The position numbers and the translations under genes are program-made. A stretch of DNA of 64,000 bases from assembly GCA_951406725.2 (NCBI GenBank), contig OX597833.1:22134001-22198000 (forward strand). The letters run 5' to 3'. Shown piece by piece: positions 3,560 to 51,579 of this stretch. Source of the stretch: Octopus vulgaris (Eukaryota). Each line of letters starts with the position of its first letter. Position 1 is the first letter of the stretch. Below the pieces are notes generated by a model. The model was given only the letters and a program-made list of their open reading frames with translations, was not told the DNA's origin and did no database searches.

Positions 3560-3979
3560 CTTACTCTTTTACACTTTTACTTGTTTCAGTCATTTGACTG
3601 TGGCCATGCTGGAGCACCGCCTTTTAGTCAAGCAAATCGACCCCAGGACTTATTCTTTGTAAGCCTAGTACTTAGTCTATCGGTCCCTTTTGCCGAACCG
3701 CTAAGTTATGGGGACATAAACACACCAACATCGGTTGTCAAGCGATGTTGGGGGGATAAACAGACACACAAACATATACCCACACATACATATATATATA
3801 CATATAAATATATACAATAGGTTTCTTTCAGCTTCCATCAACCAAATCCACTCACAAGGCTTTGGTCGGCCCATGGCTATATTAGAAGACATTTGCCCAA
3901 GATACCACATAGTGGGACTGAACCCAGAACAATGTGGTTGGTAAGAAAGCTGCTTACCACACAGCCACTCCTGCGCCTA
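3560..3979 (-). mobile_element. Full-length tRNA-derived SINE, family A
   Basis: Minus-strand head ggcgcaggagtggctgtgtggtaag...gggttcagtccc (A/B-box-like), internal TA/TG microsatellite, tail gctccagcatggccacagtcaaatgactgaaacaagtaaaag. More than 20 full or partial copies occur in the window. Confidence 0.9.
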
Positions 3980-13886: not shown

Positions 13887-13889
<3 letters not shown>

Positions 13890-14015
13890 AAAAAATAGAA
13901 ATAGCAGTCAAGAATGCTTATTTCTATCAAAGTGGGACTCCGGGCACGACAAACCCTGTAATTCACATATGCAAAACGGAAGGGATAGATAACGAAAACG
14001 AAGTCTGGTGGTTAT

Positions 14016-14128
14016 CTGTGAACATCATGTTTCTGGATTATAAACATATTGAATATATATTTCATATATATTTTTGATATATATTTCATATACATTGCAT
14101 ATATATTTCACATCCTTCTTCAGCACAG
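14016..14128 (-). ncRNA. Type I hammerhead ribozyme motif (variant core), copy 1
   Basis: Reverse complement of 14697-14809. Confidence 0.7.
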
Positions 14129-14387
14129 CTTTCCATTGAAATAGATTTATCATAGATTTATCAAATGCTACGTACCTCAAACCTTCTGACCATGCGACAT
14201 CAAAATATTTGAAGAAAGTGAGCAAAGGCTAAAATATATATGCAATGTATATGAAATATATATCAAAATATATATGAAATATATATTCAATATGTTTATA
14301 ATCCAGAAACATGATGTTCACAGATAACCACCAGACTTCGTTTTGCATATGTGAATTACAGAGTTTGTCGTGCCCGGAGTCCCACTT

Positions 14388-14437
<50 letters not shown>

Positions 14438-14696
14438 AAGTGGGACTCCGGGCACGACAAACTCTGTAATTCACATATGCAAAACGAAGTCTGGTGGTTA
14501 TCTGTGAACATCATGTTTCTGGATTATAAACATATTGAATATATATTTCATATATATTTTGATATATATTTCATATACATTGCATATATATTTTAGCCTT
14601 TGCTCACTTTCTTCAAATATTTTGATGTTGCATGGTCAGAAGGTTTGAGGTACGTAGCATTTGATAAATCTATGATAAATCTATTTCAATGGAAAG

Positions 14697-14809
14697 CTGT
14701 GCTGAAGAAGGATGTGAAATATATATGCAATGTATATGAAATATATATCAAAAATATATATGAAATATATATTCAATATGTTTATAATCCAGAAACATGA
14801 TGTTCACAG
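14697..14809 (+). ncRNA. Type I hammerhead ribozyme motif (variant core), copy 2
   Basis: Stem I ctgtg, core CTGAAGA, extra a, stem II GGAT...ATCC enclosing a long AT-rich insert, extra a, GAAA, stem III CA-tga-TG, then GTT (predicted cut after 14804) and cacag closing stem I. Confidence 0.7.
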
Positions 14810-15337
14810 ATAACCACCAGACTTCGTTTTCGTTATCTATCCCTTCCGTTTTGCATATGTGAATTACAGGGTTTGTCGTGCCCGGAGTCCCACTTTGATA
14901 GAAATAAGCATTCTTGACTGCTATTTCTATTTTTTCGGTATGCGGTCAAACAACCTGTTGCTTGTCCCTTTTTCTTATATACAATATATATACTGAACTT
15001 TACAGAAGTTCCTGCCGGTAATCGGCTATATTTACATACTGAATTCTACCAGTAAATAATTGTGGTTTTTAAAAACCTTTATAGAAATTATTTACTCTTA
15101 TTATTATATTACTAATTGGATTTTTCACTCCCTTACGACAACCAAATGGTTCCTACTCATATGGAACTATTTTTGTAGTGCGCATGGCAAAATTTTGGAG
15201 GGAAGTTTTACGAATTCAAACGTCTATGTAGGTTTAGCCTTTGCTCACTTTCTTCAAATATTTTGATGTCGCATGGTCAGAAGGTTTGAGGTACGTAGCA
15301 TTTGATAAATCTATGATAAATCTATTTCAATGGAAAG

Positions 15338-15450
15338 CTGTGCTGAAGAAGGATGTGAAATATATATGCAATGTATATGAAATATATATCAAAAATATAT
15401 ATGAAATATATATTCAATATGTTTATAATCCAGAAACATGATGTTCACAG
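15338..15450 (+). ncRNA. Type I hammerhead ribozyme motif (variant core), copy 3
   Basis: Identical to 14697-14809, exactly 641 nt downstream. Confidence 0.7.
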
Positions 15451-15741
15451 ATAACCACCAGACTTCGTTTTCGTTATCTATCCCTTCCGTTTTGCATATG
15501 TGAATTACAGGGTTTGTCGTGCCCGGAGTCCCACTTTGATAGAAATAAGCATTCTTGACTGCTATTTCTATTTTTTCGGTATGCGGTCAAACAACCTGTT
15601 GCTTGTCCCTTTTTCTTATATACAATATATATACTGAACTTTACAGAAGTTCCTGCCGGTAATCGGCTATATTTACATACCGAATTCTACCAGTAAATAA
15701 TTGTGGTTTTTTTAAAAACCTTTATAGAAATTATTTACTCT

Positions 15742-15797
<56 letters not shown>

Positions 15798-19852: not shown

Positions 19853-20229
19853 AAAAGAGAGAGAGAGAGAGAGAGAGGAAAACTGTAATTGTCACTAATT
19901 GTGATTGAGGGTGCCAAAGTACTTGTAGTGTAAGAAATAAGAGTTAGAAACTCTTAATGCTGTATTCTTTTATTCTTTTACTTGTTTCAGTCATTTGACT
20001 GCAGCCATGCTGGAGCACTGCCTTTAGTTGAGCAAATTGACCCCAGGACTTATTCTTTGTAAGCCTAGTACTTATTCTATTGGTCTCTTTGGCAGAACCG
20101 CTAAGTTACAGGGACGCAAACACACCAGCATCGGTTGTCAAGCGATGTTGGGGGGACAAACACAGACACACAAACACATACACACACATACATATATATA
20201 TACAATTAGTTATATAATAAGAGTAAACA

Positions 20230-20765
20230 ATAGCTTTAATAGTTTTTAAAAAACCAACAATTATTTACTGGTAGATTTTGGCATGTAAATATAACCATTA
20301 ATGGTAGGAACTTCTATAAAGTTCAGTATATATATTGTATATAAATAAAAGAGGCAGGCAACAGGTTGCTTAGCCACATACCGAAAAAATTAGAAATAGC
20401 AGTCAGAGACTGTTTATTTCTATTTTCTACAAATAAGACTCCACATATGACATATCCCTGTAATTCGCCTGATCGAGAAGTGGAGGTACGTAGCATTTGA
20501 TAAATCTATTTTAGTGGAAGTTTACGCTGACGAAGGACATGGAATTGATATTTTATTATATTCCTAATCCAGAAACGCGTTCGTAAATAACTGTTAGACT
20601 TTGTTTTCGTTTTTTCTTCTTTCTGTTTTGCATATGTGAATTACAGGGATATGTCGTATGTGGAGTCTTATTTGTAGAAAATAGAAATAAACAGTCTTTG
20701 ACTGCTATTTCTAATTTTTTCGGTATGTGGCTAAGCAACCTGTTGCCTGCCTTTTTTATTTATAT
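20230..20765 (+). mobile_element. Diverged member of the HHR element family with inverted arms, inserted in the microsatellite of a family A SINE
   Basis: Arms of about 130 bp (about 20340-20467 and 20635-20765) are reverse complements. The sequence is homologous to 14650-15095 (gaggtacgtagcatttgataaatctat, gttttgcatatgtgaattacaggg, ttgactgctatttcta, ttttttcggtatg, caacctgttgc). Confidence 0.85.
20521..20587 (+). ncRNA. Type I hammerhead ribozyme motif with palindromic stem III
   Basis: tttacg-CTGACGA-a-GGA..GGAAT..ATTCC..TCC-a-GAAA-CGCG-TT-cgtaaa. Stem I is tttacg/cgtaaa and AACGCGTT is self-complementary. Confidence 0.75.
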
Positions 20766-21214
20766 ATATATACATATATATGACGGGCTTCTTTCAGTTT
20801 CTGTCTACCAAATCCACTCACAAGGCACTGGTTGGACTGAGGCTATAGTAGAAGACACTTGCAAAGTGAGGCCTTTTTTCTTCACCTCTTCCACATGCGC
20901 GTGGCTTAGTGGTTGGGACATTCGGCTCACGATTGTAAGGTCGTGAGTTCAATTCTCGGTGACGTGTTGTATCCTTGAGTAAGACACTTTATTTCACATT
21001 ACTCCAGTCCACTCAGCTGGCAAAAATGAGTTGTACCTGTATTTCAAAGGGTCGGCCTTATCACACTGCGTCATGCTGAATATCCCTGAGAACTACGTTA
21101 GGGATACACGTGTCTGTGGATTGCTCAATCACTTGCATGTTAATTTCATGAGCAGGCTGTTCCATTGATCGTATCAGCAGGGACCCTCATCATCGTAACC
21201 GACGGAGTGCTCCT

Positions 21215-35665: not shown

Positions 35666-37567
35666 ACGACATTGATGGTTCATTGAAGAGAAAGACAAGA
35701 AGAAGAAAAGAAAGAAAAAAAGATTAAAGACAAAAGAGAGAAAGGGGGAGAGATAAAGGGTAGGGTCTATGGAGGCAAAGCTAATTCATCCATTGCTGTA
35801 ATAGTTGCTATTGAGACTAAAGAATATAATTTTGCTATTCAACAGAGGAAAGAACTGGAATTCTCTGTTGAGAAATGTAATTAACATGGTTATGGTTGAG
35901 AGGTTCGTTAATAATCAGAACATTTACATCAGCAAATATAAAATATTTCATCATCATCACCATCACCATCATCATCGTTGTCGTCATCACTACCATCATC
36001 ATCATCATCACCATCACCATCACCATCACCATCATCATCATCATCATCATCATTAGTACTCAACTTCTTTAAGTTCCACTTGGGGAGGAAGGTAAGGGTG
36101 AACTTGATGGATGGTGAGTGAAAGAGGTGAGAATAGCTTGGGTGAATAGGTTTATTATTTTTTTTTTCAACATGATCCCATAGGTAGAAGAACACAATGA
36201 GGAGAGAGAGGGAGAGAGGGAGAGAGGGAGAAAGAGAGGGAGAGATAGTGGGGAGAGAGAGAGAGAGAGAGAGCACTCGCCCTTTTGCAGTCTGTGTAAT
36301 CCTGGATCTGTGGTGTTCTTTGATTGGCACCTGCTCTCCCATCCCACCCCACCAATGGCTGTGTCTCCTTCCCTCTTTGGAATGAATCATTTCATACATT
36401 TTGGGATACTTTTGTTTCACTTGACTCTGTTTTACATAACAGATTCTGATTCATTAATTTAACACTACTAATTGACAACCGTATTCGATAGCATATAAAA
36501 CACACTTTTATCCCAAAAATGTGTCACAAAAAAATTCACTCTGGGTCCTATATGCAAAGTTGGTCCTCTCATATGTTTAAACTTTTATGTCTCTGAATAT
36601 GTGCTGCTAAAATAGGAATGTGCCCAATATACCCATGCATCTTTTATGCCATCAAATATGCTCTAATATCAATACAGCCTTGGTTTTTTTATCTGATTAT
36701 GCAATAATTACAGCAACGTTGAACCCTTTATTCGCAATATTACTGAATCTGGAACTTAACTATGGTCTGTCTATAGCACTTATTCAGCATTACCTGACAC
36801 CTTTGGGTCTCAATGACACCATTATCTCTTATAACCTCAACTACATACACATATACCATATTTTATGGTATACAAGATACACATTTACCCACCCAACCCT
36901 AACAAATGTGTCTCAAAACATTACCCTGGGTCCTATATGCAAAGTTGAGTCTTTCATAAGCTTTAATGCACTAAAACTGGGGGTTTTTTTCTTGAACCTG
37001 TGCTGCCAAAATTGGGATGCTTCAAATATGTCTGTGTGTCTTTTATGCCATCAGATATGGTATTCTTTTATTCTTCTATTCTTTTACTTGTTTCAATCAT
37101 TTGACTGCAGCAATGCTGGGGCACCACCTTAGAAGGTTTCTGTAGGTGAAGAAATCAACCCTAGGACTTATTCTTTGTAAGCTAGTACTTATTCTATCTG
37201 TCTATTTTGTCAAACTGCTAAGTTATGGGGACACAAATACATCAGCATTGGTTGTCAAACAATATCAGTGGGGAGGGGACAAACAGACATACACACAAAC
37301 ACACATGTATGTGAATATATATATATATATACGACGGGCTTCTTTCAGTTTCCGTCTACCAAATCCACTCACACTGCTTTGGTCAGCCTGAGGCTATAGT
37401 AGAAGACACTTACCCAAGGTGCCATGCAGTGGAACTGAACCTGGAACCATGTGGTTGGGAAACAAACCTCTTACCACACAGCCATACCTTCATCTTTTTT
37501 TTTCTCTCTAGTTTCAGCTCAGAGCTGCGGCCATGCTGATGCACTGCTGTTTAAAAAAAATTCTTTG

Positions 37568-37638
37568 TGCATCGGCCGGGAATCGAACCCGGGCCACTCG
37601 CGTGGCAGGTGAGCATTCTACCACTCAGCCACCGATGC
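37568..37638 (-). tRNA. tRNA-Gly(GCC), probably a pseudogene
   Basis: gcatcggtggctgagtggtagaatgctcacctGCCacgcgagtggcccgggttcgattcccggccgatgca (71 nt). Acceptor and T arms are intact and an oligo-T run follows. The D stem (GCTG/GAAT) is disrupted and the anticodon stem has an A:C mismatch. Confidence 0.85.
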
Positions 37639-47995: not shown

Positions 47996-48382
47996 AGGCG
48001 TAGAAGTAGCTGTGTGGTAAATAGCTTGCTTACCAACCACATGGTTCCAGATTCAGTCTTGGGCAAGTGTCTTCTACTATAGCCTCGGGTCGACCAAAGC
48101 CTTGTGAGTGAATTTGGTAGATAGAAACTGAAAGAAGCCCGTCGTATATATGTATATATATATGGGTGTGTTTGTGTGTCTGTGTTTGTTCCCCCAACAT
48201 CGCTTGACAACCGATGCTGGTGTGTTTATGTCCCTGTAACTTAGCGGTTCGGCAAAAGAGACCGATAGAATAAGTACTAGGCTTACAAAGAATAAGTCCT
48301 GGGGTTGATTTGCTCGACTAAAGGCAGTGCTCCAGCATGGCCACAGTCACATAACTGAAACAAGTAAAAGAGTAAAGAGTAA
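47996..48382 (+). mobile_element. Family A SINE
   Basis: Head to gtaaaagag tail. Similar copies at 50325-50722(+), 37060-37490(-), 56300-56735(-), 30615-31020(+), 51550-52160(+). Confidence 0.9.
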
Positions 48383-49195: not shown

Positions 49196-51579
49196 CAACA
49201 AAAAAAAAAAGCCAAAGACAGCAACTAAATATTCCTTAAATTACATCCTACCATTTTTTTTAAAAGGAGAAGGGACATATCTGTTAAGGGTTTGTCAAGC
49301 TACACATAAAACTAGATTTTCAGTGAACTGTGAGGAAGAAACCCAACCATCAATGGCCATATTCCCACAAGCAGAAAGGTAGTATCCAGCATCATCACTA
49401 TGAGATATATACCTCAAAGTATGGTGAGACATAAAGATCAAGAAAATATTAAATAGGCAAGTGGTTCTCAGTTCAATATCCAGTGGTTCTCAACCATTTT
49501 TTTTTTGTGCCTATGGGCCCCTTTGGTTCCTATTTTACACTACAGGACCTCCATAGCAATTCGATAAATATAAAAAATCTCACTGTATTTTTATAGTTAA
49601 ATATTATTAAGGATTGTATAAAAAAAAATTAATAGATTTTGAGTATTCATCATCATCATTTAATATCCGTTTTCCACGTTTGGCATGGGTTTCACAGTCT
49701 AACTGGAAATGGTAAGCCAGAGAGTTGCACCAGGTTCCAGTCTGTTTTGGCTTGGTTTCTATGGTTGGATACCCTTCCTATACTTTTATTGTAGAAATAT
49801 AACAAATTTATTGCATATAAATTCTAACAACAAAATTTTATATAGACACCCCTCCCCCAAGGGCCATAAGGAACCCCCAGTTCCTTTAGGCATTAATATC
49901 AGTGGGTTTCTAAGCAGTGCCTTCGTGAGAGTGTTAAGGAAGCTACATAGCTGTTTCTTCTTTTTCTACCCATAAACATTGTATCCTTATCATAATTATC
50001 ATCATTTAATGTCCACTTTCTATGCTGAAATGAGTTGGATGGTTTGACTGGATCCAGTGAGTCATAGAGCTGCATCTATCTCCAATATTAGCTTTGGCAT
50101 GGTTTCAACAGCTGGATGCCTTTCCTAATGCCAGCCACTTTACAATATATACTGGGTGAGGGTTTTTTTTTGTGCCACTATTACTATGTGTAAAGACAAA
50201 ATTTTTACATTCATCATCATAATACAAAGTTGGCTAAAAATCTATAGACATCTTCTATAGTACACTATAGCAATGAAATGAAACATTGTAAATAAATACC
50301 CCAGTAATTTAAAATTAAATAATGTATGTGTGGTAAGTAGCTTGCTTACCAACCACATGGTTCCAGGTTCAGTCCCACTGCGTAGCACCTTGGGCAAGTG
50401 TCTTCTACTATAGCCTCAGGCCGACCGATGCCTTGTGAATGGATGTGGTAGACAGAAACTGAAAGAAGCCCATCGTATATACGTATATATATATATATGT
50501 ATGTATGTGTATATGTTTGTGCGTCTTTGTCCCCCAACATCGCTTGACAACTGATGGTGGTGTGTTTATGTCCCCATAACTTAGTGGTTCAACAAACAGA
50601 CTGATAGAATAAGTACTAGGCTTCCAAAAAATAAGTCCTGGGGGTTGATTTGCTCGACTAAAGGCGGTGCTCCAGCATGGCCGCATTCAAATGACTGAAA
50701 CAAGTAAAAGGGTAAAAGAGTAAAAAATAATGTAGTCCTAGATATGCAATGTCTGAGAGAAGGATCGGGGGTGGGAATTGAAAGGGAGGCAGGTCATGGC
50801 TGGAGTGACTTTGGTCAGAGATGAGCTGGAGCTAAGTAACAACAGCAACAAAATCAATACCTACAGACTTACCCCCACCCCCTTTTTCTGCCATAATATC
50901 TCTATGGCTACAGTTAATTTTACACAGAAAATAAACTGATAATAATGATGACGACGACGATGATGTTAATGATGATGATGATGATGATGACAATATCAAT
51001 GATGATAGTGTCTAAGATTGACACAAGGTATTAACAAGAAAAGCATTCTATTTTGTTAGAAATATTTATTCCAAAAGAAATCTGTCGTGAGTTAGTTTTC
51101 ATACATCTCTTTTTTAAAATCTTTTCCAAATCAATTATTTTTGTTTTTAATTCTAAATATTTCCCCCATATTGCTAACATAATTATTGTTTCTAACTTCA
51201 GACTTTCGTCTTGGAGGAATTTCTCTACTTCAGAATGCAGACTGTTCCAGCACATGTCATATATAGTGAAAAATGCCAACCAAAATAGTAATAACATCTG
51301 TGGGAACTGACTGTCTCCTGTAACCTGGAGCATCATGTTGGAATCTAAATGCAATTTTGTTTGTAGTTGCTATTTTCACCAAGATGACTTTTGTAAAAGT
51401 AAAGATCAAAGTTACATTGCTATTTTGAGTTGGTTATTTGCAACTCTAAATTCTTGAAACTTTCAAAGGAAAAAAAAAAGACTTCTAGATACAAGCATTA
51501 CCCATCTCTCTCATTCAAGGCCTCAGGCTAAATAAAACACCAGTACACGCAAGTGTGGCTGTGTGGTAAGAAGCTTGAA

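Follow-up and report, generated by a model that had tools for sequence, protein, structure and literature searches.

What does a pair of diverged hammerheads in one stretch of Octopus vulgaris DNA say about selection on RNA structure? The window analyzed here (64,000 nucleotides of contig OX597833.1) contains, at positions 20521-20588, a motif with the layout of a type I hammerhead ribozyme, and near 14.7 kb it contains related hammerheads whose stem I differs on both sides and is still paired. An earlier note, made from the sequence alone, regarded this as the strongest evidence in the window that the RNA structure was under selection. The locus thus raises the question of whether the fold was selected and, if so, in which copies.

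The 20.5-kb motif and its counterparts at 14.7 kb

The 20.5-kb motif presents a CUGANGA core, GAAA and UH in type I order and is built from the following parts:

20521..20526, + strand: 5' arm of stem I (positions 2.6-2.1), TTTACG
20527..20533, + strand: catalytic core C3-A9, CUGACGA (DNA CTGACGA), with C at N7
20534..20537, + strand: 5' side of stem II; A10.1, mismatched with A20571, then G, G and A paired with 20570-20568
20538..20567, + strand: 3x3 internal loop (CAU 20538-20540 / UAA 20565-20567) and distal stem IIb
20541-20545 with 20560-20564, + strand: the pairing of distal stem IIb, which also covaries
20568..20575, + strand: 3' side of stem II; UCC, then A11.1 at 20571, followed by G12-A13-A14-A15.1
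20572-20575, + strand: GAAA, with CGCG next
20575..20580, + strand: helix III dyad ACGCGU
20580..20581, + strand: U16.1 (20580) and U17 (20581) of the GUU triplet; predicted cut 20581/20582
20582..20588, + strand: 3' arm of stem I, CGTAAA (1.1-1.6; 20582-20587), plus U1.7 at 20588
20683..20712, + strand: small hairpin AGAAATA...TATTTCT in the downstream flank, present across subfamilies

Stem I is predicted to extend past an internal loop, with approximately 20505-20517 pairing with 20590-20601, both here and in most subfamilies.

Comparison of the two loci reproduced most of the earlier description. Counted outward from the core, the five stem I pairs are G-C/G-C, T-A/C-G, G-C/A-T, T-A/T-A and C-G/T-A, exactly as claimed; three of the five have therefore changed on both sides relative to the 14.7-kb hammerheads (CTGTG/CACAG), and within the core the copies differ at N7 only. 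The cut had been predicted after 20581, which is the correct position by the hammerhead consensus. Stem III had been described as a palindrome, AACGCGTT. The outer letters of this sequence, A14 and U17, have to be unpaired in an active hammerhead core, so the dyad is present but its working part is ACGCGT (20575-20580), shorter than the whole of AACGCGTT.

The two loci share the mismatch at 10.1·11.1 (A20534·A20571). The sixth stem I pair is U-A in the 20.5-kb copy, and among 50 copies from the 14.7-kb family 45 have G·A there. Flank identity of about 70-80% shows that the copies are homologous. When six changes were placed randomly on the ten stem positions (200,000 trials), the two-copy pattern arose by chance at a rate of 0.5% if every pair had to be Watson-Crick and 2.5% if G·U was accepted as well. 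Made after the fact and from two copies, the comparison is therefore no more than suggestive.

The G+C fraction of the motif is 0.25-0.35. An Rfam search of 20470-20640 returned no hammerhead model match at E<=10, and there was no hammerhead among the 150 of 162 matches listed for the whole window; the Rfam miRNA matches in the window proved to be AT-rich fold-backs. The bare CTGANGA..GAAA pattern was not enriched (6 observed versus 4.65 expected). A relaxed scan of the window recovered the 20.5-kb motif, the three identical comparison motifs and one weak, G·U-rich, chance-like match near 42.9 kb, while a covariance model run over the window gave no complete motif beyond the 20.5-kb motif and its three comparison motifs.

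The motif lies in a non-coding repeat inserted into microsatellites

Both loci are insertions of one repeat family. The 20.5-kb insertion, of ~580 bp, consists of an inverted arm joined to a 5'-truncated forward arm, and the comparison hammerheads lie in a young insertion of a related subfamily:

13889..15753, both strands: young family B insertion, 641-bp unit, bounded by (AT)n and (TA)n
14697..14809, + strand: family B hammerhead with stem I CTGTG/CACAG, helix III ACATGATGT and a long AT-rich stem II
15338-15450, + strand, and 14016-14128, - strand: identical copies of the family B hammerhead
20040..20200, + strand: left part of an interspersed host repeat, whose microsatellite is the insertion target
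20200..20466, - strand: left inverted arm of the 20.5-kb insertion, unit phases 56-316, without a ribozyme; may extend to 20188
20465..20778, + strand: right arm, a 5'-truncated family A unit running from approximately phase 464 via the cut site to approximately phase 187 (family B unit phases)

The family B insertion comprises about 1.8 units on the + strand (14592-15753), an inverted arm on the - strand (13889-14233) and a fold-back piece between them. This ~360-bp fold-back (14232-14593), made of two inverted, deleted unit pieces flanking (AT)23, accounts for the false Rfam miRNA matches. The right arm of the 20.5-kb insertion ends in a TA repeat, and the host repeat, of which uninterrupted copies are found at 48063-48305, 3640-3896 and 50394-50643, continues after about 20760. 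Since the 20.5-kb insertion has a single ribozyme, this ribozyme has no partner in cis, and a transcript would carry one ribozyme. Elsewhere in the window there is a tRNA-Gly (GCC) gene or pseudogene (37567-37638, - strand).

We searched the 2.8-Gb assembly (227 contigs) for further copies. Subfamily A, to which the 20.5-kb copy belongs, gave 1206 first-look candidates, and the scored copies are 89-98% alike; subfamily B, which includes the 14.7-kb copies, is younger, with 937 candidates at 98-100% identity. Exact patterns in which the core and stem II were fixed and stem I was free matched 1047 + 397 times with A·A at 10.1·11.1, 379 times with A opposite another letter (C/G/T), 186 times with C·A and 120 times with G-C, compared with 0-11 matches for the reversed patterns used as controls. 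A few of the exact-pattern matches have unrelated flanks and hence fall outside the clade.

A flank profile over 357 loci yielded 511 matches, and removal of 171 duplicates and 42 matches with a degenerate core left a final set of 298 copies from 229 sites, which fall into ten groups (A, B, C, D, E, F, G, H/I, P and R); 291 copies were placed in the tree. The copies were drawn from the best-hit and exact-pattern lists and are not a random sample. Because the filter removed the degenerate-core matches, core conservation among the copies was not used as evidence.

All subfamilies could be aligned both upstream and downstream of the motif, and no ORF was found in the repeat unit. B, C, D, E and F have a tandem period of 550-644 bp, with head-to-tail units that carry a complete hammerhead. 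Neither the 20.5-kb locus nor any of 33 sampled family A sites contained a same-strand tandem, so that B, C, D, E and F are the only subfamilies in which cis dimers were observed. TA repeats mostly begin about 170-200 or 280-300 nt past the cut site; 3' ends derived from similarity were noisy, and ends were taken from the first TA run and from the two window insertions.

Two further observations concern the unit. A splice-donor-like GTGAAT/GTGAGT lies at 20636-20641 (+ strand), ~55 nt beyond the cut site; it is absent from R but recurs in A, B, C, D, E, F, G and H/I and in roughly half of the P copies. The pseudo-LTRs of Penelope-like elements (PLEs) can contain introns. Contigs from 4 + 4 sequencing runs presumed to be RNA contained no spliced joint; such contigs carry no information on transcript ends, strand, circles or expression. 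One locus (L223, G000:C1:33468000-33477900) holds two subfamily D unit pairs on the same strand, 6.5 kb apart and with no long ORF between them, possibly as a result of local duplication.

Shared changes keep the stems paired and private changes do not

We built a tree from the flanks only (152 columns), leaving out the stems and the core, ran parsimony site by site and sorted the changes in each pair into those common to three or more insertion sites (shared) and the rest (private). The deep nodes of this tree are weak, and F is nested in H/I. In stem I, all 33 shared changes at pairs 1-5 ended paired, 14 of them two-sided, whereas only 29 of 69 private changes did so and 40 broke the pair (Fisher p=6.9e-10). 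The contrast held when pair 6 was added (41/45 shared versus 36/89 private changes ending paired), and five slid registers showed no difference between shared and private changes (p=0.07-0.83). It extended to stem II (10.2-10.4; 7/7 versus 13/33) and stem IIb (24/29 versus 24/54). G·U and A·C endings stood at 8:0 in shared changes and at 19:18 in private ones. An earlier sample, comprising 274 copies, had 29 shared changes, 28 of which ended paired; simulated independent evolution on the tree gave 0.39±0.09 for this sample, and none of 20,000 runs reached 0.97.

Counts of pairs gave the same picture. In 24 representatives, 96.6% of 408 cells were paired, compared with 32-42% in slid versions, and 13 of 17 pairs had changed on both sides. 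None of 500 shuffles matched the paired share or the covariation score, although 19 of the 500 matched the count of two-sided pairs. RNAalifold, run unconstrained, returned the same 17 pairs in a structure identical to the hammerhead. Subfamilies also contain G·U intermediates, such as C-G, U-G and U-A at pair 2 in H/I and G-C, G·U and A-U at 10.2 in subfamily A.

Together, these results support the conclusion that the + strand RNA of the source, or copying, lineages was under selection, as read from sequence, and that inserted copies decay neutrally. A larger alignment had been proposed as the test of the original observation, and the covariation in it is strong and absent from slid registers. 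As evidence for selection, the comparison within the window is suggestive when two copies stand alone, and it becomes strong over 298 copies at 229 sites. The claim that the RNA structure was selected is thus borne out, by the phylogeny-aware test, by counts of pairs set against shuffled and slid controls and by the unconstrained fold, but for the copying lineages. Selection did not act on the 20.5-kb copy itself, which is a decaying passenger: private changes disrupt pairing about as often as neutrality would predict. The covariation is real and strong, yet of an already described kind, since PMC4209133 describes hammerhead families within a genome that are full of compensatory changes and thus covary at the family level.

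Helix III is self-complementary

A type I hammerhead has either a stable helix III or a dyad, and the 20.5-kb copy has the dyad form. Within one molecule, its helix III was computed to form 1 bp closed by a 4-nt loop (+6.0 kcal/mol), and between two molecules 6 bp (-7.5 kcal/mol); the other subfamilies gave +0.4 to +6.0 kcal/mol for the monomer versus -4.6 to -10.8 kcal/mol for the dimer. The minimum-energy fold of a lone monomer is not the active one, and core letters pair with the helix III region in it. We then considered 18 helix III variants, each present at two or more sites. Among their inner pairs, which lie too close together to pair within a single molecule, 22 of 24 are complementary, and six pair types occur; because the variants are related, any p value for this count would be too small. 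The earlier note had taken the palindromic stem to mean cleavage as a dimer, and these pairs support that reading indirectly. A self-complementary helix III of this kind would fit the dimer model set out in PMC4209133 and PMC6765202.

Probable mobilization by a Penelope-type enzyme

Partial tandem and inverted arms and microsatellite targets are described as PLE traits (10.1101/2021.04.23.441226), and reverse transcription of one PLE is reported to start at two internal points (PMC11167929). The octopus repeat has traits of a nonautonomous PLE, namely partial tandems, inverted 5'-truncated copies in microsatellites and preferred internal 3' ends, and it has no ORF with reverse transcriptase (RT) and GIY-YIG inside the element, as an autonomous PLE would. 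By analogy, this architecture and the dependence proposed in 10.64898/2026.07.22.740005 suggest that the repeat depends on PLEs.

The genome is rich in PLE-like ORFs with canonical hammerheads of their own, and these elements also end in TA repeats. PLE-like loci L093, L094, L097 and L098 (G000 C9, C11, C19 and C2) have frames of 980-1090 residues and canonical hammerheads with a palindromic helix III; the repeat period of L097 is 4650 bp. A Pfam search with two long PLE-like ORFs gave no match, and the Atlas placed a PLE-like ORF among rotifer clusters that carry RVT_1 on a minority of their members. The assignment of these ORFs to PLEs is based on known PLE motifs and on the rotifer clusters in the Atlas.

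In blastn searches, the family B unit had no match to 48 PLE-ORF loci of one PLE group, and no autonomous element sharing the unit was found at these 48 loci or at six loci with nearby RT pieces. An RT-endonuclease ORF adjoining a family B copy (L034/L061) was rejected as the autonomous partner because it belongs to another PLE, which has its own, different hammerhead and into which B had inserted. The RT pieces at L107, L118, L037, L244 and L307, also considered as partners, are separate insertions. Four pairs of distant copies were checked for an intervening ORF, and a single PLE protein query matched none of them.

We consider the following account likely. The type I hammerhead-shaped motif sits in a non-coding 550-644-bp repeat, and its stems kept pairing, probably because the transcripts have to fold and would cut themselves, presumably in dimeric form; copying into TA repeats, likely by a Penelope-type enzyme, would follow. 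A source copy would be transcribed through tandem units, two neighboring ribozymes would pair via helix III, U1.7 would dock onto the loop-2 A, and a cut 3' of U17 would leave unit-length RNA in linear or circular form. A PLE RT-endonuclease acting in trans would begin at preferred internal points, ~180-200 and 280-320 nt beyond the cut, and write the RNA into (TA)n. The mismatch at 10.1·11.1 and the GUU triplet would probably slow the ribozyme.

A mismatch at the base of stem II

In a type I hammerhead, 10.1-11.1 is a base pair, usually G-C, and in the 20.5-kb copy it is not. Across the clade, subfamilies A (34 of 34 copies), B, C, E, F and H/I have A·A, P has C·A or A·A, G has A·C and D has A-U, and G-C occurs only in R and some G copies. 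Changes at this position showed no trend toward pairing (2 of 7 shared changes ended paired). Subfamilies A, B, E, F and H/I, all with A·A, have GUU as their cleavage triplet, and D, G, P and R have GUA or GUC. GUU is a weaker cleavage site.

According to PMC3088659, 10.1-11.1 is the most conserved pair after A15.1-U16.1, and U·U is the mismatch best tolerated there; matches with other such core-adjacent mispairs were discarded from that survey. Among the papers listed in our literature searches there was no A·A or C·A case at this position, and fuller PLE variant catalogs or supplements may contain one. The same mismatch occurs in hammerhead-like motifs with unrelated flanks at L117, L143, L174, L041, L180, L334, L342, L053, L154 and L218, and it may thus occur in other element families of the genome.

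The nucleotides of a loop 1/loop 2 contact are present by sequence. U1.7 is found in 267 of 298 copies, with all 31 exceptions in subfamily D, and the last letter of loop 2 is A in 297 of 298; by analogy, both appear to be kept in the register of the U1.7-loop-2 A contact as summarized in PMC11875169. Subfamily D (e.g., L193 and L223) is the sole subfamily with C at 1.7 and has also gained A-U at 10.1-11.1, which may reflect a trade between the tertiary contact and the strength of helix II. Two related copies combine C1.7 with A·A.

Tentatively, the clade might represent a natural tuning series: helices, dyad and contact letters were kept by selection, G10.1-C11.1 gave way in the most successful subfamilies to A·A or C·A together with GUU, and a deliberately slowed ribozyme would leave enough uncut multi-unit RNA for Penelope-type copying. 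We regard this as a possibility on the doubtful side. If it is true, such motifs escape Rfam and descriptors that require a 10.1-11.1 pair, and a whole class of animal hammerheads may be missed. The relation between cleavage rate and spread is directly testable with the G-C (R), A-U (D), A·C (G), C·A (P) and A·A (A and B) subfamilies.

The same letters could instead mark lost catalysis, with the hammerhead fold serving as a binding or folding platform for a mobilizing protein and cleavage being vestigial or dispensable. Such a role would accommodate the 10.1·11.1 mispair (A·A or C·A) and the U17 that characterize the abundant subfamilies A, B, E, F and H/I, element ends that lie far from the cut site, and the report that ribozyme-dead RNA of a purified PLE inserted normally in vitro (PMC11167929). 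It would not account for catalytic letters that show little or no variation across the 24 representatives, with N7 free (a count biased by the core filters), or for the restriction of H17 to U, A and C, and an axolotl hammerhead with U·U in the 10.1·11.1 place does cleave (PMC7229834). We judge this explanation unlikely.

No more probable, in our view, is a shift of register, in which A20534 would be an extra unpaired nucleotide between A9 and G10.1, the 10.1-11.1 pair would really be G20535-C20570, and A20571 would be another inserted nucleotide ahead of G12. An extra nucleotide after A9 is known in PLE hammerheads (PMC4209133), and position 20534 varies among A, C and G across the family. 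However, R has G-C and D has A-U at precisely the 10.1/11.1 positions, the pair that follows is A-U in many copies and not a fixed G-C, and it is with the mismatch counted in that helix II has its canonical 4 positions and helix I its 6 bp.

Two further explanations were considered. The compensatory changes could have been made at the DNA level, by template switching that repairs inverted repeats without any selection on RNA, a process that does occur here given how rich the elements are in fold-back junctions (14232-14593). Template switching would yield Watson-Crick, strand-symmetric products, and the excess of G·U over A·C in shared changes largely refutes it; moreover, G·U intermediates last in whole subfamilies, and the arms are merely 5-6 nt long and 55-110 nt apart. 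We consider it very improbable. Less credible still is co-option of the 20.5-kb copy by the host: its stem I, core letters needed for catalysis and helix III are all preserved and agree with the family A majority, but it is 89-98% identical to the other scored family A copies and sits within the microsatellite of another repeat, and private changes across copies break stem I pairs at an approximately neutral rate.

Relation to known hammerhead systems

Selection on the fold during copying remains our preferred reading. It bears on the role of hammerheads in PLEs and animal retrozymes: these ribozymes are common, but their activity in vitro is weak, and one reconstituted system did not need them for insertion. 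The normal insertion of ribozyme-dead PLE RNA (PMC11167929) and the failure of 8 of 9 frog retrozyme dimers to cleave (10.64898/2026.07.22.740005) speak against a requirement for cleavage. Covariation as such is expected for elements of the PLE/retrozyme type and has already been described. What this family provides is a clean genomic argument that the fold was selected during copying and not after insertion, together with a set of naturally occurring variants, suited to side-by-side comparison, of a base pair that is as a rule fixed.

The closest parallel is with metazoan non-LTR retrozymes (PMC7229834; 10.64898/2026.07.22.740005), described as non-coding, AT-rich tandem units that each contain one type I hammerhead, with a helix I of 6 bp, a helix II of 4 positions, internal loops and a proposed PLE dependence; axolotl HHR_Amex1 likewise has a weak palindromic helix III. 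Their units are given as 150-450 bp (PMC7229834) and the octopus units measure 550-644 bp, and retrozymes form long arrays whereas octopus insertions are mostly short, truncated and inverted. At the base of helix II, the octopus motifs have A·A, C·A or A·C and axolotl HHR_Amex2 has U·U. By sequence alone, the octopus element would be classed as working like a PLE-dependent retrozyme, with a larger unit and, in subfamily A, without a tandem.

Unlike the PLEs whose pseudo-LTR hammerheads were described by Cervera and de la Peña (2014; PMC4209133), the octopus unit has no RT-endonuclease ORF, and the highly conserved G10.1-C11.1 reported there has mostly been lost from the octopus clade. PLE motifs are described in PMC6155905 as lacking tertiary contacts, whereas the octopus clade keeps U1.7 and the loop-2 A. 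The hammerheads with U10.1·U11.1 reported by Perreault et al. (2011; PMC3088659) share a natural mismatch at the first position of stem II; theirs is U·U, and here A·A and C·A dominate in over a thousand copies that have G-C and A-U sister subfamilies. To what was known of these systems, the octopus family adds the test of shared against private changes, sequence support for a dimer helix and a dominant 10.1·11.1 mismatch accompanied by canonical sister subfamilies.
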